A stretch of DNA of 64,000 nt from Candidatus Hodarchaeota archaeon (GTDB lineage: Archaea; Asgardarchaeota; Lokiarchaeia; Sigyniarchaeales; SOKP01), in assembly GCA_048887225.1 (NCBI GenBank), contig JBHLJY010000003.1:46420-110419 (forward strand), read 5' to 3'. Positions 28,535-63,585 of the stretch are shown in pieces; positions within the stretch are counted from its first letter, which is position 1; each line of letters starts with the position of its first letter. The position numbers and the translations under genes are program-made. Below the pieces are notes generated by a model that ran no database searches, had not been told where the DNA came from, and was given only the letters and a program-made list of their open reading frames with translations.

Positions 28535-28536
28535 AG

Positions 28537-46965: not shown

Positions 46966-48081
46966 ATGGTTTTTAGAATTTTACGTCCAGACTCGCATTC
47001 AGTTTGGCAAAACGAAGATATTCTTAAACGTTTTTCTAAATATAGAGGTATCTTAGATGGAAAGCAAATAGCAAGATATTTAATAGCTAAAAGCTTAGAA
47101 TGCAACTTTAACTCCAAGACCGATTCTTTAGAGAATTTAGAGATGTTATTAAAAGAAAAATCTATTGAATTTAACGAGTTATTGAAAAATATACCTGAAG
47201 AACTTAAAAATCGTGAGATTAAATCAAGTTCTTACGTTGATTTAGCTGAAGATATCGCAAGAAAATATCTTGAAAATTGTATTTTTTGCGAAAGAAAATG
47301 CGGGGTTAATAGAATTCAAGATGAAAAAGGGTATTGCTTATTAACAAAGGACTCATACGTTTCCTCAGCTTTTTTACATTTTGGAGAAGAATCTGTTCTC
47401 GTTCCATCTGGAACAATATTTTTTCAATCTTGTAATTTTGGGTGTGTATTTTGCCAAAATTATGATATCTCTCAAGCTTGGAAAGGTAGAAAAAATATTG
47501 AGGATATAGCTCAAAAAATTGATAAAGAAAAATTAGCAGCTATAGCAAAAAGACTGGTTGAGAAAGGAGCATTAAATATAAATTATGTTGGAGGTGATCC
47601 TATACCAAATTTACACACGATTGTTGGTAGTTTAAAATATCAAACATCGAACATTTGTCAGTTATGGAATTCAAATTTCTATTTAACTAATGAATCATTG
47701 TCATTAATTATTGATTTTATGGATTTTTGGTTACCTGATTTTAAATATGGGAATAATATATGCGCTGAAAAATATTCTGGTATTAAAAATTATTTCGATG
47801 TTGTATCTCGTAATCATAAGAGAATACATGACGAGGGTAGTGCCGAAATTATAATTCGCCATCTTGTATTACCGAATCATATTGAATGTTGTTCTAAACC
47901 GATCTTAGATTATGTAGCAAAAGAGATACCCAAATGTGTTGTCAACATTATGGGACAATATAGACCGCAATACAAAGCCCATAAATATAAAGAAATTAAT
48001 AGACATCCCTCAACAAGAGAAATGATAGATGTAAAGAATTACGCTGATGAATTAGGAATATTATATACCCCTGTCTCATGA
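46966..48081 (+). CDS. radical SAM protein (PflX-like, COG1313)
   Basis: 'CNFGCVFCQNYDIS' (CxxxCxxC) plus an upstream Cys cluster 'CIFCERKCGVNR...GYC'. Confidence 0.8.
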   Translation: MVFRILRPDSHSVWQNEDILKRFSKYRGILDGKQIARYLIAKSLECNFNSKTDSLENLEMLLKEKSIEFNELLKNIPEELKNREIKSSSYVDLAEDIARKYLENCIFCERKCGVNRIQDEKGYCLLTKDSYVSSAFLHFGEESVLVPSGTIFFQSCNFGCVFCQNYDISQAWKGRKNIEDIAQKIDKEKLAAIAKRLVEKGALNINYVGGDPIPNLHTIVGSLKYQTSNICQLWNSNFYLTNESLSLIIDFMDFWLPDFKYGNNICAEKYSGIKNYFDVVSRNHKRIHDEGSAEIIIRHLVLPNHIECCSKPILDYVAKEIPKCVVNIMGQYRPQYKAHKYKEINRHPSTREMIDVKNYADELGILYTPVS

Positions 48082-48191
48082 ATCGTTTTAAGTTTTAATT
48101 CTGCCATTTAAAATTTATCATCTTTCAATCTCTTTTTAGAAAAATCTATAAGGAATCTAATATTTTTAATTTTACCTAATTATCAATAATA

Positions 48192-49325
48192 ATGTTCAAC
48201 TTTTATCAATTTATTATGAGTTTTAAATTGGAAGACGTTAAAGGTTTAGGCAAAAAAGCGGGAAATCTTAAGGATGCCGGAATAGATTCAGTTGAAAATT
48301 TAGCAAATGCTAAAGAAGATGATTTAATAAAGATTAAAGGTATTGGTAAAGCATCTGCCCAAAAGTTTATCAATAATGCAAAAAAATTATTGAAAAGTAA
48401 AACTAGCGAAGATATGTATGAAGAAAAGGTAGTTTCCGAAGAAATTAATGAGGAAGAAAAAAAAGTTCAAGAAGAACATAAAAGATTAGAGGAAAAGAAA
48501 AGGAATTTAGAAGGAAATACGGTTGAGAAAAATGATTTCATTCTTGTAAAGGTAACAGGGAGAACACAAAAGGGAAAAATCTTTCAAGTTTCTTCTGTAG
48601 ACGATGCAAAGAAAGCTGGTATCTATGACGAGAAAAAAGAACATCTTTATACACCTGAATTTGTAATTGTAGGAACACCTGGATTTTTAAATGAGGGTCT
48701 TATGGAAACCATTGAGAATATGAATTATTTTGAAAAAAAATCGGTGCGAATTCCGCCAACAAAAGCTTTTGGTAAACGGGATCCCACAAAAATTGAAAGA
48801 ATTGGTATTGCTAAATTTAGGAGAATGAATGATGGGAAGAAACCAGAAATCGGACAAGATTTTACAAGGAAGGATGGTCAGAGAGGTACGGTAACTAATA
48901 TTTTACAAGGTAGGGTTATCATAGATTATAATCATCCTTTAGCTGGGCAATCACTTGATTACAATATTGAAGTAATTGATAAAATCGAAGATTTTAACAA
49001 AAAGATTGAACATTTTATGATATCAAAAGGAATTCCTAAACAAAATGTTTCAGACTTTAATATAAATTACAATAAGGATGATCAATCAATTGAATTTACA
49101 ATCCCGAAACAGTTCTTGTTCCAAAATTTGGCATTATTAAAATTTAGTCTAGCAATAGATTTACAAACTCATATGACAGATGAAATCAATGATGTAAAGT
49201 TTATCGAAATTTACGAAAAAATGCCAATACCACCAACGCCGTCAGAATCAGTAATGGAAAAAATTGAAGAATATGATAAAGAACATGAAGAACAAAAAAA
49301 AGATCAGACAGATAATAAAAAATAA
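48192..49325 (+). CDS. FKBP-type peptidyl-prolyl isomerase with N-terminal helix-hairpin-helix domain
   Basis: HhH 'VKGLGKKAGNL...IKGIGKASAQKF'. The FKBP core has 'FVIVGTPGFLNEGLMETIENM' and 'IDYNHPLAGQSLDYNIEVI'. The start is probably the internal M at 48216. Confidence 0.8.
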   Translation: MFNFYQFIMSFKLEDVKGLGKKAGNLKDAGIDSVENLANAKEDDLIKIKGIGKASAQKFINNAKKLLKSKTSEDMYEEKVVSEEINEEEKKVQEEHKRLEEKKRNLEGNTVEKNDFILVKVTGRTQKGKIFQVSSVDDAKKAGIYDEKKEHLYTPEFVIVGTPGFLNEGLMETIENMNYFEKKSVRIPPTKAFGKRDPTKIERIGIAKFRRMNDGKKPEIGQDFTRKDGQRGTVTNILQGRVIIDYNHPLAGQSLDYNIEVIDKIEDFNKKIEHFMISKGIPKQNVSDFNINYNKDDQSIEFTIPKQFLFQNLALLKFSLAIDLQTHMTDEINDVKFIEIYEKMPIPPTPSESVMEKIEEYDKEHEEQKKDQTDNKK

Positions 49326-49331
49326 TTATAT

Positions 49332-50336
49332 TTAATCTAATTCACACTTAAGTATTAATTCGTGCTTTTTAATTTCCTTCTCTTTTTTAAATTCTAATTT
49401 TATTTTATAAAATTCTTCTCGTTTTTGTTCAAGTTCAGTTGAGATTTTTGCTGATTTACCTTTTTTTTTTAAAAGTTTCTTTTTTGCTTTCTTGTACGCT
49501 TTTTTAGCCTTCTTATATTGTTTGTTCTTCATCTTATAAACTTTGTATTTCTCATTGATTTCCTGTCTATAGCTTTTAGATATCTCTTTAAGTCCAATAC
49601 AGTCTAATTGTTGCTTAAATTTTTTGAATGACTCGAAATTAACTACAATCATACCTAATTTTCTGGCAGGTACCAAGTTTTGAATCTTATCATCGATATA
49701 TATAACCTGTTTAGCTTTAGCATCTAATTTTTTCAAAACATATTTATATTTATCTATCTTAGGCTTGATAAGACCAATCTCATTCGAGAGAAACACGTAA
49801 TCAAATGAATCATAAAATCCTCTTAATTCATTCGATTTAGCATATACATCATAAACGTTAGACATTAAGCTCACAGTATATCCAGCACTATGAAAAGTTT
49901 CAACAATATTCTTCATATCAGAGGATAATTTTGTTAATTTAGTATGTAATTCGAACCATAATTCTAGATAATAGTCCAAGTTAACTTTTTTGGCTGGTAA
50001 GGCTCCATTATGTTTTTGATAAGGATAATAATATCTATCACTTATTTTTTCTAGAAATTCTCGTGAAGTTAATCGTCCAGAGCTTAATTTTCGTTTAAGT
50101 TTTTTAATGTAAGGATTATCTATTCTAGGTATTTTAATCTTTAAATCGCTTTCAATACTATCTAGTAGATTCTTTAAAACGAATGATCTCTCAGACATTA
50201 CACCACCAAAATCAAATATTATATGCCTAATCTTATATAACTTAACTTTTTGGCGTCCAAACATTTTTGATGAAGAATTCTTATAAGATTTATTGCTATT
50301 TTGAAGACTCATTCTCTTTATATAATAATTACTCAA
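49332..50336 (-). CDS. HAD-superfamily phosphatase-like protein with ~70-aa polybasic C-terminal tail (paralogue 1)
   Basis: Motif I 'IIFDFGGVM' (DxG variant), motif II 'VSLMSN', 'KPK' and 'YIDDK'. The tail is 'KQYKKAKKAYKKAKKKLLKKKGK...'. TTG start. Confidence 0.7.
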   Translation of the reverse strand: MSNYYIKRMSLQNSNKSYKNSSSKMFGRQKVKLYKIRHIIFDFGGVMSERSFVLKNLLDSIESDLKIKIPRIDNPYIKKLKRKLSSGRLTSREFLEKISDRYYYPYQKHNGALPAKKVNLDYYLELWFELHTKLTKLSSDMKNIVETFHSAGYTVSLMSNVYDVYAKSNELRGFYDSFDYVFLSNEIGLIKPKIDKYKYVLKKLDAKAKQVIYIDDKIQNLVPARKLGMIVVNFESFKKFKQQLDCIGLKEISKSYRQEINEKYKVYKMKNKQYKKAKKAYKKAKKKLLKKKGKSAKISTELEQKREEFYKIKLEFKKEKEIKKHELILKCELD

Positions 50337-51307
50337 TATATTTTAATTCTTGAAACTAATTCTTTCTTTTTCAATTTTGCTTTTTTATATTCAGCTTTTT
50401 TAATCATATAATCTTCATATTTTATTTCAAGATTAGTTTTCTTTTTTGAGGAGTCCTTTTTATTTTTTAAATAGTAGTTTTTTGCCTTCTTATATGCTCT
50501 TTTAGCCTTACGAAATTCTCTCTTTATTTCTTTATATAGTTTGTATTTGTTTTTAATTTCACGTCGAGATAACGAGCTTATATCTTTTATGCCAAGTTCT
50601 TTTAATTGCTCTTTAAATTTATCTATAGACTCAAATTTTAGGACATTCATACCCAATTGTTTAGCAGGAATGAGATTTTTGAGTTTATTGTCAATAAAAA
50701 TGCAATATTTGGGTTTTGTTTTCAATTTTTTTATTACATATTTATATTTTTCTAAATCTGGTTTCCTAAATCCAATTTCGTTTGATAAAAAAATAAAATC
50801 AAATAAATTATAAAATCCTTTAAGCTTATTTGATTTTACATGAACATCAAAAGTATTTGACATTAAGCTAACCGTATATCCTGCTTTATGTAGTTTTAGG
50901 ACAATTTCTTCCATGTCCATAGATAAATGGGAAAATTTAGAATATAATTGAAACCATAATTCTAAATAATAGTCCAAGTTAACTTTTTTGGCTGGTAAGG
51001 GTCCATCATTTTTCTTATTTGGATAATAATATCTCTTAAGAACTTTCTCTATAAAATCACGTGATGTGATTATACCCGCGCCTAATTGCCTAAACAATTT
51101 TCTATAATAAGAATCTTCTGATCGAGGGATTATTATATTTAAATCGTTTTCTATTATATCAAATAGATTCTTAATACTATGAGTCGGTTTTATGAGTACA
51201 CCTCCAAAATCAAAAATGAAGTGTTCAATTTCATATAATTTAACTTTTTGAAACCCGAATACTTTTCGAATAATATCTTCTTCTTGGTCTTGAAAGCTCA
51301 TTATCAT
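50333..51307 (-). CDS. HAD-superfamily phosphatase-like protein with polybasic tail (paralogue 2)
   Basis: 'FIFDFGGVL', 'VSLMSN', 'RKPD' and 'FIDNK'. The tail is 'REFRKAKRAYKKAKNYYLKNKKDSSKKK...'. The stop overlaps the start of paralogue 1 by 4 nt. Confidence 0.7.
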   Translation of the reverse strand: MIMSFQDQEEDIIRKVFGFQKVKLYEIEHFIFDFGGVLIKPTHSIKNLFDIIENDLNIIIPRSEDSYYRKLFRQLGAGIITSRDFIEKVLKRYYYPNKKNDGPLPAKKVNLDYYLELWFQLYSKFSHLSMDMEEIVLKLHKAGYTVSLMSNTFDVHVKSNKLKGFYNLFDFIFLSNEIGFRKPDLEKYKYVIKKLKTKPKYCIFIDNKLKNLIPAKQLGMNVLKFESIDKFKEQLKELGIKDISSLSRREIKNKYKLYKEIKREFRKAKRAYKKAKNYYLKNKKDSSKKKTNLEIKYEDYMIKKAEYKKAKLKKKELVSRIKIY

Positions 51308-51340
51308 CTTAAACTAAATCAATTATTTAATAAATATATT

Positions 51341-52132
51341 TTAAATTTCCTTTTTTAATTTTTTAAACTCTCTCAAAATCAGATTCCCAATTTTAGAAAC
51401 AGGATCTCCTCCACATTTCCAATTTGTAAACTCTGGAAATGATCCCGGATCAACAACAAACAATTTACCAGTATTTTTTTCTTTAACAATGTCTAAATGT
51501 CCGAATAATAGATTATAACTATTTTTCCATTTTAAAATAATTTCTAGGATATCATTAGGCGTATCTCTTTTTATCATATCAGAATGTTCATTTTTTAAAG
51601 GAAGTTTTTCTAAAGTACATATTTCATTATCAATAAAATAAACAGTATAATGTATGCCTTCAATAAATTTTTCTAAATATAAAATTTCATCTGAATTTGC
51701 TTCAAAATCTCTGAAGGTGTTTATAATTTTAACGCCTCTGCTTCCAGAACTCGTAATTGGCTTTAAAAGTAATGGAAAGTCGTTTTCTGTAAGATTTTTT
51801 ATCAGAGCCTTTAATGCTCCGTAATAAATATGTGGATATAATAAACCGGCATTTTTTATTAGTAAATAAGCTTCTAATCTGTTTCTGTGTTTATAACTAA
51901 TTTCTGGATTTGGTATAACTGGAATATTATTTGCCTCAATATAATATCCCGCATAGATAAAAGGTATTTGATGTTTAGATTTTAATATGTATAAATCATT
52001 CTCAAGTAATGACTCATCTATGCATAGATTTTCCTTTGTATAGATTTTAACACGATATCCTTTACTTTCATAAAATATTTTTAATTTCCCGGTAAAATAT
52101 CCTGTTCTTTTAGATAATATTCCTATTTTCAT
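51341..52132 (-). CDS. ATP-grasp protein (divergent; RimK/ITPK-like)
   Basis: 'PLLLKPITSSGSRGVKII', 'LYLEKFIEG' and 'FGHLDIVKEKNTGKLFVVDPGSFPEF'. 263 aa. Confidence 0.65.
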   Translation of the reverse strand: MKIGILSKRTGYFTGKLKIFYESKGYRVKIYTKENLCIDESLLENDLYILKSKHQIPFIYAGYYIEANNIPVIPNPEISYKHRNRLEAYLLIKNAGLLYPHIYYGALKALIKNLTENDFPLLLKPITSSGSRGVKIINTFRDFEANSDEILYLEKFIEGIHYTVYFIDNEICTLEKLPLKNEHSDMIKRDTPNDILEIILKWKNSYNLLFGHLDIVKEKNTGKLFVVDPGSFPEFTNWKCGGDPVSKIGNLILREFKKLKKEI

Positions 52133-52145
52133 GTTATAATTCTAT

Positions 52146-52973
52146 TTATTGTTTTTTAGCTTGTTCTATTAAAAATTCCGCAAATATTTTTGGTCCATTT
52201 TCAATATAATTAAAATTTGGCATGGAATTTATGTCTGTTAGATAATAAGTCCCATCTTTTGATTTTAAAAAGTCTAAAGATGAAGCCTTAAGGTCTAGAA
52301 TTTTTATTGCTTTTAATGCGATTTCTTTTAATTCAGAAATCTCTTGGATTTTTCTTCTGGTTTCCATTTTATCTGGGTTTACTAAAAATGGAATTTGTTT
52401 ATAGAAAAACAATTTATCTCCAAAACCATATATTTTATATTCCCACTTACTTTTAACGAATTTCTGGTAATAATAATATTGATAATCCTCCTCTCCTCCA
52501 TTAACTTCTTTAATTGCTCTCTCATCACTGATCTTTAGATGTCCATTTTCTTTTAAAATATTTGGCTTAAAAGTGTATGTTTTTTCGTCAACTATATTCT
52601 TTATAATATAATCTTTAAATGGGGCTTGACAAGTTGAGGGAAATAATGAAAAATCAGGTACACAGATACCAACTTTTCTTAATAAAATACTATTTAAAAA
52701 TCTATGTGATGCTAGCCAAATTGCTTTTGAAGGATTAATTACGGGGATTGAAGTTTCGTTTTCAATCATTCGAGCAAGAGAAACCAAAAATTTTCCTTTA
52801 CCCTTAACAAAAAATAGATCTTCGTCAAATTCTAAATTTTTATTTTTAAGTAAGTAAGAATCTTCTACATATAGTTTTACATTAGATTTAGATTTTAAAT
52901 ATTTTAATAAATCTGATATTTTATATTTCAAATGAAATTTATCAATAATGATTCCAATTTTTGGTTTTTTCAT
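52146..52973 (-). CDS. ATP-grasp protein (divergent; ITPK-like C-terminal motif)
   Basis: 'YYQKFVKSKWEYKIYGFGDKLF' and 'SSLDFLKSKDGTYYLTDINSMPNFNYI'. 275 aa. Confidence 0.6.
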   Translation of the reverse strand: MKKPKIGIIIDKFHLKYKISDLLKYLKSKSNVKLYVEDSYLLKNKNLEFDEDLFFVKGKGKFLVSLARMIENETSIPVINPSKAIWLASHRFLNSILLRKVGICVPDFSLFPSTCQAPFKDYIIKNIVDEKTYTFKPNILKENGHLKISDERAIKEVNGGEEDYQYYYYQKFVKSKWEYKIYGFGDKLFFYKQIPFLVNPDKMETRRKIQEISELKEIALKAIKILDLKASSLDFLKSKDGTYYLTDINSMPNFNYIENGPKIFAEFLIEQAKKQ

Positions 52974-53178
52974 AAATATCTAAATTATAATCTGATATTA
53001 AATACATGAGATTTATTCGATTTAAATGAATATATAATGATTTATATATTATAATTTAGATTAAAAAATTATTTAAGTAAAGCTGTTTGGCGATTCCCTA
53101 TATAGATCCCATATATAAATAATAAATAGATTTATAAAGAATGTTTTTTATAAGAAACCAAACTGATGAGATTTTTTT

Positions 53179-54096
53179 ATGTCTAAAAAAATCATTGTTG
53201 GTTCGATCTGTAATCGAGATCTCGAAGTTTTTAACGAGATCAAGAGATTTTCTAAGATTCATTATAGAATAAAGTTTGTTAATCTCATAAAAAACGATTC
53301 TTCTTTTTCTATCAAATATTTCAAAAAAAAATTGAAAAAATACAATATAGATTTCTTAATTGTTAAATTATATTCAGAGGAATCAAATCATAAAGTATAT
53401 GACGCAATTAAATCATATGCATCTAATATCCCCCGATTGAATAGTTTAAAATCTGTTCAAACATGCGAGAGCCGAAAGGAAACATTTAAATTAGTAGAGG
53501 AAAAATGCAAAAAACTAAAGATTCCTAAATCTTTTTATTCAATAAACGCTGCGTTTGAAGCAGTATCGAATGGAACGCCTTTAATTATAAAATTAGATAC
53601 ACATAATATAAGAAATTTATCTAAATATGATCGAATTCTTGGTGTCGCGAAATCTAATGATGATTTCGTTAAGTTAATTAGAAAATATGATGTAGAGAAT
53701 AACACTTTATTTTTCCAAGAATATTTAGGTAAACATGATGATATTTATAAAGTGTATGTAATTGATCGTTATGTACAAACAATCACATCTCAAAATCTTT
53801 TATTACAACATAAGTTTTCCCCTTTAGAATTAGTACACCTTAGAGCACCGATAGAAAAAGAATTTAAAAGACAAATTTTAAGATTAGGGCGAAAATTTGG
53901 TATGACAATCTTCGGTGTTGATTATGTCTTAAAAGATGACATTCCCTATATAGTAGATATTAATGATTTTCCTAGTTTTAGATATATCCCCGAGGCTATA
54001 AGCATGATATCTGATTATATATACAAGTTCTGTGTTGCGAGACAAACTCTTACTAAGATTCCAATGAGATTAAAAGTAAAAACTTATACTATGTAA
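53179..54096 (+). CDS. ATP-grasp kinase, inositol-tetrakisphosphate 1-kinase (ITPK1)-like
   Basis: 'FLIVKL', 'PLIIKLDTHN', 'FFQEYLGKHDDIYKVYVIDRY' and 'IFGVDYVLKDDIPYIVDINDFPSFRYI'. Collinear with recalled human ITPK1 motifs. Confidence 0.7.
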   Translation: MSKKIIVGSICNRDLEVFNEIKRFSKIHYRIKFVNLIKNDSSFSIKYFKKKLKKYNIDFLIVKLYSEESNHKVYDAIKSYASNIPRLNSLKSVQTCESRKETFKLVEEKCKKLKIPKSFYSINAAFEAVSNGTPLIIKLDTHNIRNLSKYDRILGVAKSNDDFVKLIRKYDVENNTLFFQEYLGKHDDIYKVYVIDRYVQTITSQNLLLQHKFSPLELVHLRAPIEKEFKRQILRLGRKFGMTIFGVDYVLKDDIPYIVDINDFPSFRYIPEAISMISDYIYKFCVARQTLTKIPMRLKVKTYTM

Positions 54097-54123
54097 GAAT
54101 AGCAATACAATTAAATTCTTATA

Positions 54124-55215
54124 TTATCGCGATCTTTTTCCTTGGATAAATCTTACAAGGCGTCGTTTCGCCCTAAAATCTTGGAGCTGTTTTGGAGGGT
54201 GTTTCATAAAAAAAGAACTTGCTGAATGTAATACGCCTCCAATCTGTCGATCTTTAGCTATTTTTGATATTCGAATGCAATCTGCAATAATACCTGCTGA
54301 ATTATTCCCGTCTTCAACAAACATGGTGATATCTACTCTGACAGGAGCGCCTCCAAAAATACGTCCTTCTAATCTCATATATGCTTCTTTTTGATTTTTT
54401 AAGAATGGAATATAATCAACAGCAGAAATTTGACATTCAACAGTATCTTTATTTTGTAACTTAGCAACGACTGCCTCAGTTTTGGATTGGCGTTTTCCTT
54501 CTTCATAAATTAGCTCCCCGTTCGGTTTAGGTGTTAGAAGGTTCAAGAAATCGCTACATCCGCCCCAATCAAGCTGTATTGTTCTATCCAATATCGCTCC
54601 ACGCATTGGAAAAAGATTTGCTAAAGCTCTATGAATAATTGTCGCACCAACCTGAGATTTCACATCGTCTCCAATTAAAGAAAGTCTTAATTCTTCTGCT
54701 TTTTGGACTATTTCTGGATCTTTCGCTACATTTGATGGTATTCCACACACAATACAGGCTCCTGCATCAAGAGCAGCCATTGCATAAAATTTCACAGCTC
54801 TATGGGCCCCAGTTGGTAGAAGAATTACAGCGACATCAACACTTCGTTCTCTTATTTCTCTAGCAATATCAGCTTCTTTTTGGTTATTATCAACAGGCAC
54901 AATATTCTTTATGTTGCTATCCAAACCATCCATTATAGGACCTTTAATGACTGGAGCATTTAGAAAATCTGGACGATATAGTTCCATATTACAATTTGGT
55001 TCAGCAAATATGGCTTCACTAAGATCTTTTCCAACTTTGTTTGCGTTGACTTCTATGCCCAATACAAAACTTATATCATTGATGCTATATTGTATTATTT
55101 CTGGTAGAATTCCTATAATTTTATCTGGATTTCTTTTATAGTTTTCGATTCCTTGGACAAGAGCAGATGCAACATCTCCAATCCCTATCAGACAAACATT
55201 AATTTTATTTGTCAT
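54124..55215 (-). CDS. ino1: myo-inositol-1-phosphate (inositol-3-phosphate) synthase family protein
   Basis: 'VCLIGIGDVASALVQGIENYK', 'LIGDDVKSQVGATIIHRALANL', 'LDWGGCSDFLNLL' and 'FFMKHPP'. Collinear with the recalled Thermotoga/actinobacterial-type MIPS. Confidence 0.75.
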   Translation of the reverse strand: MTNKINVCLIGIGDVASALVQGIENYKRNPDKIIGILPEIIQYSINDISFVLGIEVNANKVGKDLSEAIFAEPNCNMELYRPDFLNAPVIKGPIMDGLDSNIKNIVPVDNNQKEADIAREIRERSVDVAVILLPTGAHRAVKFYAMAALDAGACIVCGIPSNVAKDPEIVQKAEELRLSLIGDDVKSQVGATIIHRALANLFPMRGAILDRTIQLDWGGCSDFLNLLTPKPNGELIYEEGKRQSKTEAVVAKLQNKDTVECQISAVDYIPFLKNQKEAYMRLEGRIFGGAPVRVDITMFVEDGNNSAGIIADCIRISKIAKDRQIGGVLHSASSFFMKHPPKQLQDFRAKRRLVRFIQGKRSR

Positions 55216-55423
55216 GATAATGGGTATAATTAAATTATTATATTTAAATCATTACGAATAAGAATAAGATCTTTAAATCTTTCACAAAGTATCTTCAATT
55301 CTTTTTCCTTTAAATATGGTAAAAAATCATAATTCAATATGTATTAAATCGTAATCTATAAGTATAAAAAATTATAATTCAAGATAAGCAAACTATCAAA
55401 CAATAAAAGACTGTTTTACTAAA

Positions 55424-56701
55424 ATGGAAAAAATAGAAAAATTACCTCGAAAAGTAAAGAGAACTGCCATCCTAGTAGGAATCTTATTCGCTGGAGCGAC
55501 TATATTCGGTTATTTCGAAGCCACTTTCTTCAATACTTACTTAGATCATCAATTAAATTTACCATATTATTACATCTCCATAATGGTATCGTTATCAGCC
55601 ACAATGGGATTAATAATGATGGTCGTTTGGGGAATAAAAAGTGACAATACGAGATCGAAATTTGGTAGACGAAGTCCATACCTTCTATTGGGTTTTATAG
55701 CAGGATTTGCAATGATAGCTTTCGCTTTTGCTGAAGATTTTCTAATGTGTATAATTTTAGATGTGATTATTATTGGAATTGCGTCTAATGCATATTATGT
55801 AGCTCAAAGATCGTTTATTCCAGATTTAGTCGAATCTGAACATCGAGGGCGAGCTAATGGAATTACTAATGCTATAGGAAATCTCGGATTATTAATTGCG
55901 ATTGGTTTAACTTTAGTCGCAAATGAATTATTTACGGTTAAAAGAGGCACTGGAAACATTTTAACTCGCGAAGGTCATTTATTTTTGTTCATTATGGGGG
56001 GTGGGGCAATTATACTATGTAGTATGATTGGTTTTATATTCATAAAAGAATTACCTCAATCGGAGTTGCCTCCAAAAAAAGCATTTATGCTTGAACTAAA
56101 AGAAATCTTTGATATTGAAGAATTCAGAAAACAAAACCAATTTTTTAGAATTGTTTTAGCAGAAACAATTTTTAGAGCACATATCTATGTAGTATTACCA
56201 TTTTTGTTTAGCTATTTATTCTCTTTAGCATTGACTACATTTGAGTTTATTTTAATCATTGCGGTGTCTACTCCGGTTATTGTTGTAGTAATGGTGATTT
56301 TAGGTAAAATGGCAGATAAATTTGGCCGAAAAACTTCATTAGCACCTGGAATCATTATTGCCAGTATAGGATTATTCATGATGCCATTTGCTATATTCTT
56401 TCCTCAATATAAGATAATAATCTTACTTCTTGCATTTCCCTTGGTTTTAATCGGGCTTTTAGGGCTTGAAGTACCTCTTAACGCTTGGTCCCAAGATCTT
56501 CTTCCAGAAGATAGAAGAGGTAAATTCTTGGGAATATTAAATGTAGTTAGAACAATATCACAAATTATAGGGGTAACCGTAGGAGGTATTGTTGCCACGA
56601 TTTACGGTCTTGAATGGGTTTTTATTTTCGCTCCAATATTTCTAATTGGATCTATCTTCTTTTTCAGAAGAGTAAAAGAAACACTAACATTTGAAGAATA
56701 A
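55424..56701 (+). CDS. GPH-family (glycoside-pentoside-hexuronide) cation symporter
   Basis: 12-TM ORF with the GPH signature 'SDNTRSKFGRRSPYLLLG'. It lies adjacent (convergent) to the beta-glucuronidase gene. Confidence 0.75.
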   Translation: MEKIEKLPRKVKRTAILVGILFAGATIFGYFEATFFNTYLDHQLNLPYYYISIMVSLSATMGLIMMVVWGIKSDNTRSKFGRRSPYLLLGFIAGFAMIAFAFAEDFLMCIILDVIIIGIASNAYYVAQRSFIPDLVESEHRGRANGITNAIGNLGLLIAIGLTLVANELFTVKRGTGNILTREGHLFLFIMGGGAIILCSMIGFIFIKELPQSELPPKKAFMLELKEIFDIEEFRKQNQFFRIVLAETIFRAHIYVVLPFLFSYLFSLALTTFEFILIIAVSTPVIVVVMVILGKMADKFGRKTSLAPGIIIASIGLFMMPFAIFFPQYKIIILLLAFPLVLIGLLGLEVPLNAWSQDLLPEDRRGKFLGILNVVRTISQIIGVTVGGIVATIYGLEWVFIFAPIFLIGSIFFFRRVKETLTFEE

Positions 56702-56749
56702 CAAATATGATATTTTATTATTTATGCCTTAATTATGATTTTTTCATCT

Positions 56750-58459
56750 CTAAGATTTTTTCCATAATTTACGAAGCACATGTGCTGCCATTTTTGGTCG
56801 GCGATCTCTTGTAAATACTCCTTTATAATTCAAACCTCCCGCCCTCAATATACCTTGTGCAGTTTTGAAATCACACAAGTTCCAGACATGTTGTCCTACA
56901 ACATAATCTTTAGTATTTAAAAGCTCAATATATCTCCTTATGAATTCCATTTGATACTCTTCGCTAAACATTTCTGGAGGTTGAGCATGACATCCTGGAA
57001 TGGTATCGGTTCCAAATTCAGATAAGATTATTGGTTTAGAGTATTTTTTATATAATTTGTCCAATTCTTCAGATAGTAATTCGATACCTTCTTCAATTCT
57101 TCCTGGTTGAGTATACCATCCATAATAACGATTTAAACAGATAATATCTAAGAATTTGAAAGTGTTTTCTCCTGTACCCATCATATTAGCTATAGTAACT
57201 GGTCGAGTTGCATCTTTTTTCTTCGCAATTTCATATAATTTACGGAAAAAATCTCTTGCTCTAATACTCCTATGGGGTTCATTAGCTAAACTCCACATTA
57301 TTACGCTTGGATGATTTTTATCTCTTTCGATTAATTTTTGAATATATTGCTGGCATAATTCGAAATGACGATCAATAATTTTGAGATCAAATGTGAGCCC
57401 TACTGCTGGTGTTTCATCAATAACTAAAAAGCCTAGACGGTCAGCTAAGTCCATCATCTGTTCTGAATAAGGATAATGAGATGTGCGAAAGGAATTGGCA
57501 CCTATCCAACTTAATAAGGCGAAATCTTTAATCAAAATCACTGGAAAATAACCCTTTCCAATTATCGGAAAATCTTCATGACGTCCAAATCCAGTCAATT
57601 TTATTGGTTTTCCATTTAGGAGTAATTGATTACCTTTAACTTCAATTGTTCGAATTCCTATTGATAAAGAGTACGAATCAAAAATAATGCCATCATGAGA
57701 GAGCTCTACAATCATATCGTATAAGTTTGGGGATTCTGGAGACCATAGTGCTGCATTATCCACTGATAAAGTGGTTTTTGCTAATTCTCCAGTAAGCGGA
57801 ACTTCAGAAATAATATTTGCACTATGTCCGCTCAATTTAATCAATACATTTTCTCCATAGTTGCCAGTTCTCTGAATTTTAATATTAATATATCCATTAG
57901 TACCTTCAATGGTAGTTATAACTGTCAGATCTTTAATCCCCTCTTTAGGCATTGTATAAATTAACACTGGGCGATGTATTCCACAGAAAGGAAAAAAATC
58001 AAAATTTGTATTAGGATAATTTAAAGGTCTACCACTAGGAGGAACATGTTCTTTGGCTAAATTCCCATCCACTCGCACAATTAATCGATTTTTTTCTGTT
58101 TTTATTAAAGATGTAATATCATATTCGAAAGGCAAGTGGCCACCTTCGTGCTGACCAAGATTTTCACCATTTAACCAAACATTTGCCACGTAGTTGACAG
58201 AGCCAAATCTCAAAAATATACGATGATTTTCCCAACTCCACGGCAGATTAAAAAAAGTCTGGTACCATGCGGGACCTAAAAAATCACGATTACCAGCGAA
58301 TTGTTCGTTCCAACTAGCTGGTACTGCTATTGGGTGAGCATCATTAAGACCATTTTGCCAATTATTTATCAGACCTTCATCATTAAAATCAAAACGAAAA
58401 TCCCACAAACCAGATAAATCAATGCATTGGCGATATTTATTTATTTGAGGATAAAGCAT
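56750..58459 (-). CDS. uidA: GH2 beta-glucuronidase
   Basis: The N-terminus 'LSGLWDFRFD...AVPASWNEQFA...WYQ...RIFLRFGSVNYVANVWLNGENLGQHEGGHLPFEYDIT' is collinear with recalled E. coli GUS. 'NEP' and 'SEFG' catalytic Glu contexts are present. Confidence 0.85.
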   Translation of the reverse strand: MLYPQINKYRQCIDLSGLWDFRFDFNDEGLINNWQNGLNDAHPIAVPASWNEQFAGNRDFLGPAWYQTFFNLPWSWENHRIFLRFGSVNYVANVWLNGENLGQHEGGHLPFEYDITSLIKTEKNRLIVRVDGNLAKEHVPPSGRPLNYPNTNFDFFPFCGIHRPVLIYTMPKEGIKDLTVITTIEGTNGYINIKIQRTGNYGENVLIKLSGHSANIISEVPLTGELAKTTLSVDNAALWSPESPNLYDMIVELSHDGIIFDSYSLSIGIRTIEVKGNQLLLNGKPIKLTGFGRHEDFPIIGKGYFPVILIKDFALLSWIGANSFRTSHYPYSEQMMDLADRLGFLVIDETPAVGLTFDLKIIDRHFELCQQYIQKLIERDKNHPSVIMWSLANEPHRSIRARDFFRKLYEIAKKKDATRPVTIANMMGTGENTFKFLDIICLNRYYGWYTQPGRIEEGIELLSEELDKLYKKYSKPIILSEFGTDTIPGCHAQPPEMFSEEYQMEFIRRYIELLNTKDYVVGQHVWNLCDFKTAQGILRAGGLNYKGVFTRDRRPKMAAHVLRKLWKKS

Positions 58460-58538
58460 ATTATTAAATATTAATAAAAGTTTTTATGCTTTTTTAGAAT
58501 TTGAATAATTAAATAAAACGGCTTTAATCAGAGTTTAT

Positions 58539-59687
58539 ATGAATAGTAGAGAGAGAGTAAAAAAGGCGTTCCATTTCGATAAACCCGATAGAGTACCTAT
58601 GTCTCAAATGAACTTAAAAACAGATTTTTTTCCAGTCCATCAATATCATCCTAAATCTTGGCAACCACAAAATTATCCTCCTCACGTAAGAGGGGGTGTT
58701 GAAAAAATAACTAAAATAACTTATAGAAAATTCGTATATAATTGGAAAAATACAATGAGAAAAGAAGCAGGATATTCTAAGAAGTGGTGGAAAAATCCTC
58801 ATGAGAGTATTGATGAATGGAATACTATTTGGAAATCTTCAGGAACAGAAAGTGCTGATGTAACAAAAGGTCATCCCTTTAAAGGTTTTCTTCAAGATGA
58901 TTGGGATAAAATTAATGATTACAAAATCCCTGACGCATCAAATCCGGAGCGATATAGGATGATAAAAACAAAAATATGGAAATTATTAGGTAAGAATAGA
59001 TATACGGTTGGCGAAATGGGAGCTAATGGTCTATTCAATCAATGTAGTCAAATTAGGGGTTTTACTAATCTTCTTATTGACTTTGCTAGACATTCACAAG
59101 AAGTAGATCAATTAATCAATAAAATACTTCCTTTTTACCTGATTCAAATTGAAAAATTTAAAGGATATTATCCAACACTAGATTCAATTATTATCGCAGA
59201 TGATTTAGGAACTCAAAAATCGCCGTTCATCAGCCCAAGAATTTTTCAAAAATTTTTTAAAGAACCTTATAAAGAAATCATAGATTTAACTCATGAATTA
59301 GGAATGGATTTTATTCTACATTCTTGCGGCCAAATTTTCGAATTAATGCCAGATATAATTGATATTAATGTTGACGTGTTTGAATTTGACAGCCCCCATA
59401 TGACTGGAGTCGAAAATTTTAAAAAATTTGCAAAGGAACGAAAGGTGGCATTCTGGCTTTCATCAAATATTCAGAGTACATATCCTCTTGGAACACCTGA
59501 AGAAGTAGAAGAAGAAATAAAACATTACATTAAAGAAGTGGGTAATAATGAAGGAGGATTAGCTATTTATGAATATATGTCAAATAAGGTTTTAAGGACA
59601 CCAAAAGGAAATATTATATCACAAAGAGAAGCTACTCTTAAATGGGGTAATTACAATGAAAATGGTTTTATTGATTGGTTAGCTTAG
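58539..59687 (+). CDS. uroporphyrinogen-decarboxylase (URO-D) superfamily protein, MtaA-like/unknown substrate
   Basis: 'SRERVKKAFHFDKPDRVP' and 'IIADDLGTQKSPFISPRIFQKFFKEPYKEII...ILHSCGQI' fit URO-D family patterns. Confidence 0.6.
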   Translation: MNSRERVKKAFHFDKPDRVPMSQMNLKTDFFPVHQYHPKSWQPQNYPPHVRGGVEKITKITYRKFVYNWKNTMRKEAGYSKKWWKNPHESIDEWNTIWKSSGTESADVTKGHPFKGFLQDDWDKINDYKIPDASNPERYRMIKTKIWKLLGKNRYTVGEMGANGLFNQCSQIRGFTNLLIDFARHSQEVDQLINKILPFYLIQIEKFKGYYPTLDSIIIADDLGTQKSPFISPRIFQKFFKEPYKEIIDLTHELGMDFILHSCGQIFELMPDIIDINVDVFEFDSPHMTGVENFKKFAKERKVAFWLSSNIQSTYPLGTPEEVEEEIKHYIKEVGNNEGGLAIYEYMSNKVLRTPKGNIISQREATLKWGNYNENGFIDWLA

Positions 59688-59740
59688 AATCGTTATTCTA
59701 TCAAAACCTTAAGAAGTTAAATAATATTTTATTCCTTAAT

Positions 59741-60631
59741 ATGGCAAAAAAAATAGTTCTTTCCGCCAAAAAAGAACATGATGTTATTATAAATGTTATA
59801 AAGAAGCTAAAAGAAATCCAAAATATTGATTTAATTTTACATGATCCAACTGAAGATTTTCTTAACTTAGAAGATATGCATAATCAATTTGGAGATGCTG
59901 ATTTTATAATAGCAAAAGTCGCAAGCGATTGTTCTATTGATTTACTCCATTTTGCTAAACTTTACAAAATTCCTACATTGCATGATATTGACACAGTTCT
60001 AATGTGTAAAAATAGAGTTGCTCTTGACCATGTTTTAAGAAGAATTTTTAATAAATATTCGAAAGAGTTAGATAAATTTTTATTACCAAAATCTTGGACG
60101 CATTCCTTATTAAATATAAATAGATTTAAGGAATGGGCTTCTTCACGATTGCCAATAGTTATTAAAAGTCATTATCAACACGATAAATACAATCGATTTA
60201 ATTTCTTGGTTCGGGAAATAGAAGAAGTTAATAAATTTTGTAAATTATATTCAAATTTTTTATACTATGATGTATATATTCAAGAATTTGTGGAATGTGA
60301 TGGAATAGAGCTAAAAGTATATGTGGTTGGAGATAAAGTATTTGGAATTAAAAGAGAAAATCCAATTTACATTTTTTTAAGAGATAAACTCATTTCTATT
60401 GATGTTGAGACTATAGAAAGAGTCAAATTTAAAGTCCCAGATGATATGAAAAATTTAGCTAAAGTTCTTGCAAAAGAACTAAATTTAAAACTATTTGGGT
60501 TTGATTTAGTTAAACCTCTTAATCAAGAGGGATATTTTCTAATTGATTTAAACGATTTTCCTGGTTTTAGGGGTATTAACAATATTGATAAAGTAATAGC
60601 TGACTTTATTAAAAAATATTTAAATCGATGA
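59741..60631 (+). CDS. ATP-grasp kinase, ITPK1-like (second clear copy)
   Basis: 'FIIAKV', 'PIVIKSHYQHD', 'YIQEFVECDGIELKVYVVGDKVF' and 'LFGFDLVKPLNQEGYFLIDLNDFPGFRGI'. Start taken at the ATG at 59741 (M23 of the tracked ORF 59675..60631). Confidence 0.7.
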   Translation: MAKKIVLSAKKEHDVIINVIKKLKEIQNIDLILHDPTEDFLNLEDMHNQFGDADFIIAKVASDCSIDLLHFAKLYKIPTLHDIDTVLMCKNRVALDHVLRRIFNKYSKELDKFLLPKSWTHSLLNINRFKEWASSRLPIVIKSHYQHDKYNRFNFLVREIEEVNKFCKLYSNFLYYDVYIQEFVECDGIELKVYVVGDKVFGIKRENPIYIFLRDKLISIDVETIERVKFKVPDDMKNLAKVLAKELNLKLFGFDLVKPLNQEGYFLIDLNDFPGFRGINNIDKVIADFIKKYLNR

Positions 60632-60730
60632 GAAGCATAATCTATAAATTTTTATTCAAATTTATTGAGTAAATTCATATCAAATTTTTTTATATTTTTA
60701 AATAACTAAGTTCTATTATTAATAGTAAAA

Positions 60731-62236
60731 ATGTCTCAAAGTGAAGTTTTATTAGATTGGACTTCTCCCCTACAATCGCCTCCACTTTTTAATTACCTTC
60801 GACAAGAAATACCGATTGAAGATCTTCGTGATTATGCTAGTCCTAGAAGGATTAAATCGATAGATTTCGTAAAGGGCTTAGCAATAATTTTAATTATGAT
60901 GGCGCACATATCCGAAGCATGGTTAGATTCAGATTGGGTATATATTTACGCAATGATTTTTTGTATAATGGATGTCTTTGGTCCATCATTATTTATCTTC
61001 CTTTCAGCACTCAGCGTAGTTTTTAGTATAAAAAAAAAACAAGGAAAAGTCCACCCTAAAATTATTAGAAACCAAATTCTTTCGCGTGGAGCGTCAATCG
61101 CAGTAATTGGAATGATAATAAATCTAGCATGGTTAAATCAAGGACCTACAGATTATCGCCCAATATTTCCTCTAAGTTTATGGGGTTGGAATATTCTTAT
61201 GTTTTTAGGCTTTTCTCAAGTATTTTCATATTATGCATTAAAATTAACTAAAAAATGGCGGATCATTATCGGCTTAATAATTATCTTTATTTCTATGCCC
61301 CTTAGACAATTTCTTATATATTACAGAGAAGATTATTTAATGGTTTGGATATTACATTTCATTATAACTTCGCCTGCTCCTCAATTGCCGCTTTTTCCTT
61401 GGCTTTCAATATGTTTTTTATCTACAATATTCGGTGAATATCTGTACGAGGCAATGATTGAAGGAACTGAAGATGCTTATGTAGGACTCATTCGGATTTT
61501 TCTATTCTGGGGGGTAATATTTATAATTTTTGGAGTTATTGCTCCCTCTATAAATTTGGGATTACCCCCTAAAATATCTTGGGGATGGGAACTACAAACC
61601 ACCGAAACGATGAATATGAATGAATATCCCCATTTATACGTCTTGGGTATTATGAACCAGCAAAAATATTATAAATTTCATGGAATTCCTCTATTTTTAA
61701 TAAGGAGTACAACAGCAAATATGATTTATAATTTAGGCGCAGCTCTGTTAATCATTGGAATTTTCTTCTATATTATTGATTTAAAGAAGAAAGAAAATAA
61801 TTTTACCTCAATGTTAATATATTACGGAAAAGTGTCGTTAAGTCTATTTCTCATACATTTTATTTTTATTCTGATTTTCGTTAGTCAATTTAGTATAGTA
61901 GTATTTCCGTTTGTTATTCTCGCTTATGTGGGATTAATGGGCTTTTCTATGTATATATGGAATGAGTATGGTAATGGGGTAGGTTCTCCAGAATGGGTGA
62001 TGATACAAATCAGCAGAATCGGTCAAAAGACAGGAGAACAAGTCAAAAGAGAACTTAGAAAAACGGAGGATTTAATTAAAAACTTTACAAAAATGATAAT
62101 GCCTAAAAAGACTTTACAAAAGATGGAGGACTTTATAGCGGAGAGAAAAGAAAAGAGATTAGAAAAAATAAGGAAACAAGAATTAAGAAAAAAGAGAAAA
62201 AAGCTTGAAGATAGAGTTGGTCATATAGAAGATTAA
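60731..62236 (+). CDS. DUF1624/HGSNAT-like polytopic membrane (acyltransferase-like) protein with charged C-terminal tail
   Basis: 'RRIKSIDFVKGLAIILIMMAHI' is the family-typical N-terminal motif. About 10 TM helices. The tail is 'RKEKRLEKIRKQELRKKRKKLEDR'. Confidence 0.6.
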   Translation: MSQSEVLLDWTSPLQSPPLFNYLRQEIPIEDLRDYASPRRIKSIDFVKGLAIILIMMAHISEAWLDSDWVYIYAMIFCIMDVFGPSLFIFLSALSVVFSIKKKQGKVHPKIIRNQILSRGASIAVIGMIINLAWLNQGPTDYRPIFPLSLWGWNILMFLGFSQVFSYYALKLTKKWRIIIGLIIIFISMPLRQFLIYYREDYLMVWILHFIITSPAPQLPLFPWLSICFLSTIFGEYLYEAMIEGTEDAYVGLIRIFLFWGVIFIIFGVIAPSINLGLPPKISWGWELQTTETMNMNEYPHLYVLGIMNQQKYYKFHGIPLFLIRSTTANMIYNLGAALLIIGIFFYIIDLKKKENNFTSMLIYYGKVSLSLFLIHFIFILIFVSQFSIVVFPFVILAYVGLMGFSMYIWNEYGNGVGSPEWVMIQISRIGQKTGEQVKRELRKTEDLIKNFTKMIMPKKTLQKMEDFIAERKEKRLEKIRKQELRKKRKKLEDRVGHIED

Positions 62237-62287
62237 TTTCTTTTAACAATTCAAAATTCTTTTTATTTATCTTAAAATTCTTTAATT

Positions 62288-62767
62288 TTAACAAGAAAAT
62301 TTTTCTAAACCTTTCATTAAACATTCTGTAATTTCGTCCCGAGCAATTCTAAATCCTTCTATTCCTTTCATAGAGGGATCTGCAATATCACCGTATTCAC
62401 CTGCGAATTCTTTTATTGTAAAGACCTCTTTATTATCAACTTCTTCATATTTCAGTATTTCTTCTTTATGCTCCTTAGTAAGGGTTAATATTAAATCTGC
62501 CTTTTTAATTAATCCTTTATGTCTTTTTAAATCGAAAGACTTAGATTTATCAGATAAATTAATTCCAATTTCTTCCATTGCTAATTTAGCATCCATTGAA
62601 ATCAACATTCCGTCCCTTGCATTTGAAGCAATACCTCCTGAATTAACCTTAACCTCTAAATTATTTTTTAAGAAATAGTCTTTTAATAAACCCTCAGCCA
62701 TACAACTTCTCGCAGTATTAACACTACAGACAACTAAAATAGATTTGTATGGAAAATCATTAACCAT
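62288..62767 (-). CDS. low-molecular-weight protein-tyrosine phosphatase / ArsC-like
   Basis: P-loop 'VCSVNTARSCMAEG' (CX5R-S) with the Asp-containing region downstream. 159 aa. Confidence 0.8.
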   Translation of the reverse strand: MVNDFPYKSILVVCSVNTARSCMAEGLLKDYFLKNNLEVKVNSGGIASNARDGMLISMDAKLAMEEIGINLSDKSKSFDLKRHKGLIKKADLILTLTKEHKEEILKYEEVDNKEVFTIKEFAGEYGDIADPSMKGIEGFRIARDEITECLMKGLEKFSC

Positions 62768-62814
62768 GATTTAGAAAAAGATAACTATCATTAATTTTTT
62801 ATCTATGAAAATAA

Positions 62815-63492
62815 TTAGTTTTTGAAACTGTCTTTATTCGCAAATTTAATACTTTTATTAACCATATTTTCTAAGGAGTTTGAAATGTTTCCAGGAGGGA
62901 GATCAATTCCTTTTGTCAAATCAACTAAGAAATATACTTCAAATCCTAAATCAACACCATCTATGGCAGTAAAATAACAACAATAATCTAATGCTAATCC
63001 ACACACAAAAATCTTGTCAATTCCTAAAGATCTTAATTTATTAGCTAAGCCTGTTTCTGATTTCTTATCATTTTCGATGAATCCTGAATAACTGTCAATT
63101 TCAGGATTCATTCCTTTTTGGATAATTGCATCCGCCAAATTTTTTTTTAAATCCTTATGAAAGTCTGCACCTATAGAATCTTGTACACAATGGTCTGGCC
63201 ATAATATGGGGCCAATTCCCTCTGATTGAAATTCATCGCCCGCATTTTTATTTAGATGTTGACTTGCAAAAGACTTATGATTTTTCGGGTGCCAATCTTG
63301 AGTTAAAACCACTTTTCCATTTTTTTTTTTGAAAAAATCTGCAACTTTATTTATCCCATCTACTATTAGATCGCCTTCTTCTACAGGCAAAGCACCATTA
63401 GGCATAAAATCATTTTGCATATCAACTATGATTAGAGCATCTTTAATGTTAATCTCAATTTCTTTATCAATCTTTAAATCTTCAATATTCAT
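62815..63492 (-). CDS. pncA: isochorismatase-family hydrolase, nicotinamidase-like
   Basis: 'LIIVDMQNDFMP.GALPV', 'TQDWHPKNH', and 'FVCGLALDYC' (catalytic Cys). 225 aa. Confidence 0.75.
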   Translation of the reverse strand: MNIEDLKIDKEIEINIKDALIIVDMQNDFMPNGALPVEEGDLIVDGINKVADFFKKKNGKVVLTQDWHPKNHKSFASQHLNKNAGDEFQSEGIGPILWPDHCVQDSIGADFHKDLKKNLADAIIQKGMNPEIDSYSGFIENDKKSETGLANKLRSLGIDKIFVCGLALDYCCYFTAIDGVDLGFEVYFLVDLTKGIDLPPGNISNSLENMVNKSIKFANKDSFKN

Positions 63493-63585
63493 TTTTATCC
63501 TGAAATTTGCTTTTCTTAATTATTACAAAATATTTTTTTTAATAAATAAACCTAGTTCCTATGAAATGAAATAGAAAGACAATTT

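Follow-up and report, generated by a model that had tools for sequence, protein, structure and literature searches.

A MIPS-ITPK gene neighbourhood conserved across Asgard archaea: a candidate lipid-independent route to inositol phosphates

Organization of the locus

The present work examines a group of genes around a myo-inositol-3-phosphate synthase (MIPS) in a metagenome-assembled genome (MAG) labelled Candidatus Hodarchaeota archaeon, Candidatus Hodarchaeota being an Asgard phylum. The DNA analysed is a stretch of 64,000 nt from the 238 kb contig JBHLJY010000003.1; this stretch is called the window and provides the numbering used below, and the part under study runs from 49332 to 63492. 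It begins with two tandem HAD-IA phosphatases on the minus strand, HAD1 (49332-50336, 334 amino acids) and HAD2 (50333-51307, 324 amino acids), followed on the same strand by the ATP-grasp proteins A (51341-52132, 263 amino acids) and B (52146-52973, 275 amino acids). A third ATP-grasp protein, C (53179-54096, plus strand, 305 amino acids), precedes the MIPS gene (54124-55215, minus strand, 363 amino acids), and a fourth, D (59741-60631, plus strand, 296 amino acids), lies beyond an insert that varies between genomes. B, A, HAD2 and HAD1, read in that order, form a tightly spaced operon, with 13 bp between B and A, 33 bp between A and HAD2 and a 4 bp overlap of HAD2 with HAD1. The operon diverges from C across an A+T-rich intergenic region of 205 bp (52974-53178), in which both promoters are presumed to lie, and C and MIPS converge, 27 bp apart. 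An Rfam scan of 48000-64000 at E <=0.1, this intergenic region included, returned zero matches. A TTG at 59675 is also possible as the start of D, and the ATG at 59741 agrees with NCBI protein MFX0186959.1 and with the orthologues.

The NCBI proteins for the locus genes are MFX0186952-59, of which A and D carry the pipeline name "RimK family alpha-L-glutamate ligase", B and C are hypothetical proteins and the synthase is named inositol-3-phosphate synthase. An initial annotation, made from the letters of the window, had listed the same reading frames, and translation recovered all of them at the positions it gave, together with every peptide string that it had quoted. Its family assignments also agree with Pfam profiles, with HAD_2 and Hydrolase for both HADs, Inos-1-P_synth for the synthase and ATP-grasp models for the four remaining frames.

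MIPS and the ITPK-family proteins C and D

The reading frame at 54124-55215 is, on its database matches, a bona fide MIPS, as had been supposed. It aligns over residues 3-359 with Ino1 of M. tuberculosis (PDB 1gr0; E 4.9e-79, 269 bits), and this full-length match is far above that to another member of the fold, the five-membered-cyclitol-phosphate synthase 6k96 (E 2.8e-41, 145 bits), so that a grouping with non-MIPS members of the family was not found. Pfam Inos-1-P_synth (PF01658) is matched at 75.8 bits with a cutoff of 27. The score with TIGR03450, 286 bits, is under the equivalog cutoff of 638 for that model, which, judged by its name, is presumably aimed at the mycothiol-linked Ino1 subgroup.

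D is, by its profile matches, a member of the ITPK family and the clearest ITPK1 homologue at the locus. It matches Pfam PF05770 (Ins134_P3_kin) at 53.4 bits against a gathering cutoff of 23, the best PDB matches of the single sequence are all to ITPK1 (top 6e-8), those of the family profile are to ITPK1 and ITPK4 only (E 4.9e-10 to 8e-6), and profile-profile alignment with human ITPK1 by hhalign gives a probability of 95.5%, with 25% identity over 135 aligned columns. The RimK name that D carries in the database conflicts with these ITPK-specific matches and is misleading. The hhalign alignment pairs K142, H147, K192 and R205 of D with K157, H162, K199 and R212 of the human enzyme, and D255, D269 and N271 with D281, D295 and N297; human H167 is replaced by R152, both residues being basic. 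These paired positions and K59 are invariant in an alignment of 24 members of the D family. The family keeps the ATP and magnesium residues and the equivalents of the proximal inositol phosphate (InsP) contacts K199 and R212, with arginine in place of H167. Among the distal contacts, human K59 is matched by the invariant K59 and the equivalent of K18 is variable across the family, while the position of G301 is glycine in the window protein and serine in some orthologues. Orthologues of D fall into more than 120 clusters at at least 61% identity across Asgard genomes. The human ITPK1 sequence used in the hhalign alignments was checked against seven residue numbers in PMC6900528 and a fragment in an HMMER alignment.

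C is a divergent ITPK-family ATP-grasp protein. The 10 best PDB matches of its family profile are all ITPKs (5.4e-7 to 6e-3), led by AtITPK4 (5.4e-7), StITPK1 (7e-6) and the human enzyme (8e-6) and reaching to that of Entamoeba (6e-3), with maize ITPK matched as well. The hhalign probability with human ITPK1 is 92.6%, K63 and K191 of C being paired with K59 and K199, and the D-x-N motif is present. HMMER and hhalign recovered the similarities to human ITPK1 motifs proposed by the initial annotation in D and, for C, those of the C-terminal motif and around K199; the proposed pairing of PLIIKLDTHN in C with PFICKTRVAHG is not in register in the hhalign alignment.

ATP-grasp proteins A and B

There were clear differences among the four ATP-grasp proteins. 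By BLASTP, C and D share 26% identity over 310 amino acids (E 7e-13) and B matches D at 3e-8, with only marginal matches for A, and the hhalign probabilities are 98.4% for C-D, 96.7% for A-B, 96.5% for B-D and 85% for A-D. The sequences are thus best described as distant paralogues that are not equivalent. None of the four reaches the cutoff of the NCBIfam models rimK_fam (TIGR00768), LysX (TIGR02144), MptN (NF040720) or CofF (TIGR04443), the best score with any of these ligase models being 46.7 bits for B with rimK_fam (cutoff 143.4), with A, C and D lower.

A is a ligase-type ATP-grasp protein resembling LysX, ArgX and RimK and is not demonstrably an ITPK. It matches Pfam ATP-grasp_3 at 27.3 bits and does not match PF05770, although a few members of the A family do. 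Its family profile finds PurK (3e-5) and ArgX (2.7e-4) first in the PDB, with ITPK at about 0.1, and the hhalign probability with human ITPK1 is 48%. In a Foldseek search with its AlphaFold2 model (predicted local distance difference test, pLDDT, 93.4) the top eight matches are ArgX and LysX (E 1.4e-16 to 3.5e-14, template-modelling score about 0.8, root-mean-square deviation 3.4-4.0 Å), after which come Ddl, PPIP5K2 and PsnB, and ITPK1 is missing from the top 50. A also has the ligase-type glycine-rich loop KPITSSGSRGVKII, and B, C and D are without such a loop. At the site of the E-x-N magnesium ligand of ligases, A and all its orthologues have an invariant V-V-D228-P-G230-S-F-P-E-F, which aligned to V-V-N-E-L-N-D-V-P-E-F of ArgX places a glycine at the asparagine position, a departure from the canonical motif. 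Unlike A, the other three proteins retain D-x-N.

B appears to be an orphan Asgard ATP-grasp protein without the glycine-rich loop, and its sequence and structure model leave its class, kinase or ligase, ambiguous. No Pfam model matches it above cutoff, PF05770 included. Its family profile places ArgX (8e-6), then LysX and RimK, ahead of ITPK (0.037) in the PDB, and the hhalign probability with human ITPK1 is 0.8%. Foldseek with its AlphaFold2 model (pLDDT 92.2) gives LysX/ArgX at 8.6e-15, Vip1/PPIP5K2 at 2.4e-14 to 8.7e-14, ZmITPK1 at 8.7e-14 and RimK at 7e-13; because LysX, Vip1, PPIP5K2, ITPK1 and RimK all score nearly equally (8.6e-15 to 8e-13), the fold match does not separate a kinase from a ligase. 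Membership in the PPIP5K family was also considered at the level of sequence and was set aside, the PDB profile search containing no PPIP5K match at E <=1. The family is small, with 264 representatives at E <=1e-3 in an exhaustive profile search of 1.84 billion proteins. The nearest relatives that are not orthologues lean weakly to PF05770, one of them passing at 31.8 bits, and a Pfam scan of 100 distant relatives gave a mixed picture, with RimK in 68 and PF05770 in 40.

The contexts of two such distant B-like proteins (L087:6902-8781 and L085:80-2433) were inspected on short contigs, where no MIPS was present and the neighbours were NTP_transferase, AP_endonuc_2 and another ATP-grasp. One of the two genes is divergently paired with a second ATP-grasp gene and with AP_endonuc_2, a xylose-isomerase-like TIM barrel, and the other adjoins NTP_transferase. 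The AP_endonuc_2 and NTP_transferase families both include cyclitol or inositol-phosphate enzymes.

The ladder of four ITPK1-like kinase paralogues that had been read into the locus does not hold in this form. C and D, whose profiles find ITPKs only, keep their place in it; A alone gave the ligase-type best structural matches that the initial annotation had named as evidence against its reading, and B is without detectable relation to human ITPK1.

The HAD phosphatases

HAD1 matches Pfam HAD_2 at 46.9 bits and Hydrolase at 35.7 bits, and HAD2 matches Hydrolase at 47.7 bits, both families being above the Pfam cutoffs in both copies, which are 58% identical. The tandem duplication is confined to the closest relatives of the window. 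The top NCBIfam family for HAD2 is TIGR02247, at 74.6 bits and under its cutoff of 125. In the PDB the nearest sequences are the N-terminal phosphatase of soluble epoxide hydrolase (sEH; 4.4e-10) and the glucose-1-phosphate phosphatase YihX (1.2e-7), and other near relatives are terpene-synthase-associated HADs (AstC, drimenol-synthase). The sequence of HAD motif I is D-F-G-G-V both in the window and in 41 orthologues, with the nucleophilic aspartate present and glycine at Asp+2, as in YihX.

Both copies end in a polybasic tail of about 90 amino acids with YKKAKKE-like repeat units, and that of HAD1 has 32 lysines and arginines among 89 residues. The tail is conserved in the 41 orthologues (for example L004:4899-5867), where 40-45 of the last 95 residues are lysine or arginine. 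Possible binding partners of the tail are acidic membranes and polyanions such as InsPs, polyphosphate or nucleic acid.

The earlier designation of the pair as tandem HAD phosphatases is sound at the level of the HAD-IA class according to Pfam. A homology with InsP phosphatases did not emerge, the nearest proteins being those of the sEH and YihX type, and searches with Pfam and NCBIfam gave no match of the HADs to the IMPase/FIG, histidine-acid phytase, PTP-like phytase or NUDIX/DIPP families. HAD-IA enzymes of the type found in the cluster are not known among InsP phosphatases.

Conservation of the neighbourhood in Asgard genomes

A scan of one genome per species with patterns specific for the D subfamily returned 80 loci, almost all from Asgard MAGs and with D orthologues of 54-92% identity, and the window proteins were searched against these loci by tblastn. 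About 60 Asgard species share the order HAD-A-B-C-MIPS-(variable)-D-LMW-PTP-isochorismatase, LMW-PTP being a low-molecular-weight phosphotyrosine-phosphatase-family protein. Where at least 8 kb upstream of D were available (61 loci), MIPS was found in all 61, C in 57, B in 55, A in 54 and a HAD in 41; where at least 3 kb downstream were available (62 loci), LMW-PTP was found in 62 and an isochorismatase-family gene in 61. The synteny that the initial annotation had proposed to look for in relatives is thus present, and since the same order is found in most of the 80 species-level Asgard genomes, the clustering is not due to chance. The median gap between the tblastn matches of A and B is 20 bp. 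Between C and MIPS, which are neighbours in 66 loci, the median is 43.5 bp, and for the divergent B-C region it is 257 bp (61 loci). The distance from MIPS to D ranges from 61 to 9160 bp, and the inserts differ between genomes.

The exceptions (L022, L059, L060, L007 and L024) indicate that the block is modular. L022 keeps C-MIPS-D and beyond these only a truncated B, and in L059 and L060 the genes A, B and C are all missing while MIPS and D remain. In L007 (3-2131) and L024 (5-1057), distant MIPS-family paralogues of 33-40% identity, not canonical MIPS, are positioned near D. L007 carries two such paralogues in tandem, D in both loci is also accompanied by two MFS transporters, and the paralogues may represent another kind of cyclitol-phosphate synthase.

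In the window the insert between MIPS and D (55424-59687) consists of an MFS transporter (55424-56701, plus strand, Pfam MFS_1 134.8 bits), a GH2 beta-glucuronidase (56750-58459, minus strand), which scores 610 bits with NCBIfam NF007538 (equivalog cutoff 544), and a URO-D/MtaA-like protein (58539-59687, plus strand, URO-D 44.6 bits), and may represent a small glucuronide-utilisation island. In 31 of the 80 loci the gene directly upstream of D is an MFS gene, in most cases with an identity near 50% and opposite in strand. GH2 occurs in 2 of the 80 and URO-D in 1, and this lineage-specific insertion of the two genes (56750-59687) is probably not part of the module. Elsewhere the same gap is filled by reading frames of 815-945 amino acids (L010:7532-9979, L059:4727-7552, L060:4727-7564, L024:2286-5093), and that of L010, the sole one of the set to be scanned, had no Pfam match.

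Downstream of D, the window has an HGSNAT/acyltransferase_3-like membrane protein of 501 amino acids (60731-62236), located between D and LMW-PTP. In the majority of relatives this place is taken by a gene for a BacA/UppP undecaprenyl-diphosphatase (Pfam BacA 165 bits; for example L004:10894-11739), and the acyltransferase_3-like protein is common to just 3 of the 80 loci. The LMW-PTP gene (62288-62767, minus strand, Pfam LMWPc 70.6 bits) was considered as an InsP phosphatase and set aside, with nothing in its favour beyond its conserved position; the LMW-PTP fold differs from that of the PTP-like phytases. The isochorismatase-family hydrolase (62815-63492, minus strand, Pfam Isochorismatase 94.5 bits) is probably functionally unrelated and marks the extent of the synteny block.

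A Pfam survey of the other 30 large reading frames of the window found no IMPase, CDP-alcohol phosphatidyltransferase, cytidylyltransferase or further InsP kinase. A PfkB-family carbohydrate kinase (1547-2506, Pfam 157 bits) lies at a distance of 47 kb; the PfkB fold is also that of TK2285, the known myo-inositol kinase of archaea. The survey also found a PAP2 phosphatase far from the cluster (36896-37540). Two ThiF/E1-like genes (15900-16766 and 25579-26328) and a pair of 2-hydroxyglutaryl-CoA-dehydratase D-component genes (27593-29811) have no relation to it. Taxon labels in this material look unreliable, as the closest relative (L001), with a D that is 92% identical, is labelled Thorarchaeota while the window is labelled Hodarchaeota, and a locus with the full Asgard block (L066, DATKTW010000070.1) is filed as "Candidatus Nanopelagicaceae bacterium", probably by mis-binning.

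Proposed pathway and alternatives

On balance, we favour the explanation that in the Asgard MIPS-ITPK neighbourhood the synthase and the C and D kinases make InsPs and the B-A-HAD operon acts on an inositol-derived product. MIPS would convert glucose-6-phosphate to inositol-3-phosphate (Ins3P), and the flanking C-type and D-type kinases of the ITPK family would then raise this inositol monophosphate to higher InsPs with ATP as phosphate donor, by a route without a lipid or phospholipase C step, as proposed for the orthologous LcIK genes of Lokiarchaeum. The most likely role of the B-A-HAD(-HAD) operon is the modification or turnover of a product derived from inositol, and kinase or phosphatase roles on InsPs are not demonstrable for its members. 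The lipid-independent route from MIPS through C and D is the best supported part, because family membership, residue conservation and a published result in yeast all bear on it; the substrates and products that we infer for C and D follow the partial restoration of inositol hexakisphosphate (InsP6) by LcIKC in that experiment. Also in favour are the findings that MIPS stays near D despite the varying insert and that rearranged loci hold MIPS-family paralogues near D.

Several observations weigh against this explanation. As a single sequence C fails PF05770, at 20.8 bits just under the cutoff of 23, and its equivalents of human H162, H167 and R212 are ambiguous in the hhalign alignment. The N-terminal Pfam domain of ITPK1 has no match in A, B, C or D at E <=0.1. 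The sole functional test of any Asgard homologue is a weak heterologous rescue (PMC6900528). Finally, radical SAM, HHH-FKBP, BacA and isochorismatase genes, which are clearly unrelated, occupy positions that are equally conserved, and for this reason gene order alone is weak evidence of functional coupling.

An alternative, which we hold to be unlikely, could be that the B-A-HAD operon, possibly with C and D, uses ligase chemistry to make not a polyphosphate but a conjugate derived from inositol. This might be a lipid head group, the side chain of a cofactor or a compatible solute, with the HAD removing phosphate from a membrane-bound or anionic intermediate such as archaetidylinositol phosphate. 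This would suit the LysX/ArgX-like structure of A and the predominance of Pfam RimK among distant B relatives (68/100), although A is without the asparagine of E-x-N and ordinary ligase chemistry is therefore not assured in it. Lipid or isoprenoid phosphates are the substrates of the solved proteins nearest to the HAD (AstC, the drimenol-synthase HAD and the N-terminal domain of sEH), its polybasic tail suits binding to acidic membranes, BacA/UppP belongs to the same block in relatives, and archaeal Ins3P is the precursor of inositol lipids and di-inositol phosphate (PMC6900528). However, neither the cluster nor the window contains a CDP-alcohol phosphatidyltransferase, a cytidylyltransferase or a carrier such as LysW, D keeps the inositol-phosphate contacts of ITPK1, and LcIKC gave InsP6 in yeast.

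It is doubtful that all four ATP-grasp proteins are InsP kinases forming a ladder, with the HADs as InsP phosphatases and MIPS completing a self-contained system, as the initial annotation had it. A in particular disfavours this model, with ArgX/LysX as its top eight structural matches, no ITPK1 among the top 50 and a canonical glycine-rich loop. B is without that loop, like C and D, and its model fits PPIP5K2/Vip1/Asp1 and ITPK1 about as well as it fits ligases, but the hhalign probability of 0.8% and a profile that puts ArgX, LysX and RimK ahead of ITPK argue the other way. The distant paralogy of all four proteins, the PF05770 matches that occur in a few A-family proteins and in some of the proteins close to B, and the co-conservation of all the genes are consistent with such a ladder; the position of the HADs nearest to lipid/isoprenoid-phosphate and sugar-phosphate phosphatases is not.

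It is improbable that the co-location is simply gene order inherited within one Asgard clade, without functional coupling of MIPS to the ATP-grasp and HAD genes, as although the radical SAM, FKBP, BacA, LMW-PTP and isochorismatase positions are conserved just as strongly and retrieval of all loci by D-subfamily patterns means that a single clade was sampled, MIPS-family genes remain near D across insertions of 0.06-9 kb and losses of A, B or C in some loci, the B-A-HAD genes keep operon spacing, and the enzymology fits, MIPS making the substrate class of ITPKs (PMC6900528).

A further reading takes in the whole block. B-A-HAD, C, MIPS and D, with LMW-PTP, would then be a complete prokaryotic inositol poly- or pyrophosphate system in which B and perhaps A, related to both ITPK1 and PPIP5K, are new inositol phosphate or pyrophosphate kinases and the HAD is a dedicated phosphatase. 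This reading is speculative and the chances are small that it is correct; if true, the archaeal lineage closest to eukaryotes would hold the eukaryotic InsP network in its ancestral form.

Asgard ITPK homologues beside MIPS are the main genomic argument for a lipid-independent InsP synthesis that predates eukaryotes. The present data have three implications for this argument. First is that the arrangement is stable in about 60 or more Asgard species and is not peculiar to one composite Lokiarchaeum bin. Secondly, exactly two gene types at the locus, C and D, are ITPK-like. Thirdly, the B-A-HAD operon provides candidates for missing steps or for an inositol-derived product.

Comparison with known systems

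The phosphatases of the cluster resemble HAD-IA enzymes of the sEH N-terminal and YihX type in their core, and the latter are without the polybasic tail of about 90 amino acids. LysX, ArgX and RimK (3vpb, 5k2m, 3vpd, 4iwx) resemble A, which superposes best on them and shares the glycine-rich loop, and ArgX is also the best profile match of B; A differs from them in having D-P-G at the E-x-N site and no gene for a LysW-like carrier nearby. The kinase domains of PPIP5K, Vip1 and Asp1 (3t9b, 5bya, 9gr8, 8e1h), which are ATP-grasp inositol pyrophosphate kinases, match the model of B at 2.4e-14 to 4e-13, equal to the ligases, and the B profile has no match to them at the level of sequence (PDB, E <=1). 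Eukaryotic ITPK1 (human 2odt/2q7d/2qb5, maize 7tn5-8, potato 8oxe, Entamoeba 1z2n) shares the ATP-grasp kinase core with C and D; of the human residues, D has K157, H162, K199, R212, D281, D295 and N297, and C has K59 and K199. Both differ from ITPK1 in their low identity and in the N-terminal Pfam domain, which is undetected, D also in the change of H167 to arginine and C in remaining under the Pfam cutoff.

The closest known system is that of Lokiarchaeum, in which, according to Desfougeres et al. 2019 (PNAS, PMC6900528), four ITPK1 homologues, LcIKA-D, flank two IPS (MIPS) genes, LcIKC partly restores InsP6 in plc1-delta yeast, and the InsP pocket has been modelled. The initial annotation knew of no archaeal cluster of this kind that had been characterised, and in this it was wrong in view of that publication; the core arrangement has been known since 2019, the window locus is a further, orthologous instance of it from a different Asgard genome, and the Asgard origin of ITPK1 has been repeated in later papers. 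The main text of PMC6900528 names the four ITPK1 homologues only, with no A-type or B-type ATP-grasp or HAD, and our literature search returned no paper describing A-type or B-type genes or the HAD, so the conserved B-A-HAD operon and the polybasic tail of the HAD look to be undescribed. Contigs belonging to the same data set, from Loki's Castle, carry HAD, A, B, C, MIPS, D, BacA, LMWPc and isochorismatase genes in an order matching that of the window, with precomputed PF05770 matches on the C-type and D-type genes only, and LcIKA-D presumably comprise two genes each of the C type and the D type, on two contigs. In Lokiarchaeum as in the window, ITPK1-homologous ATP-grasp genes flank MIPS, and the D orthologues are 61% identical; the window differs in its tandem HAD genes, in the GH2 and URO-D-like insertions and in having an acyltransferase in place of BacA.

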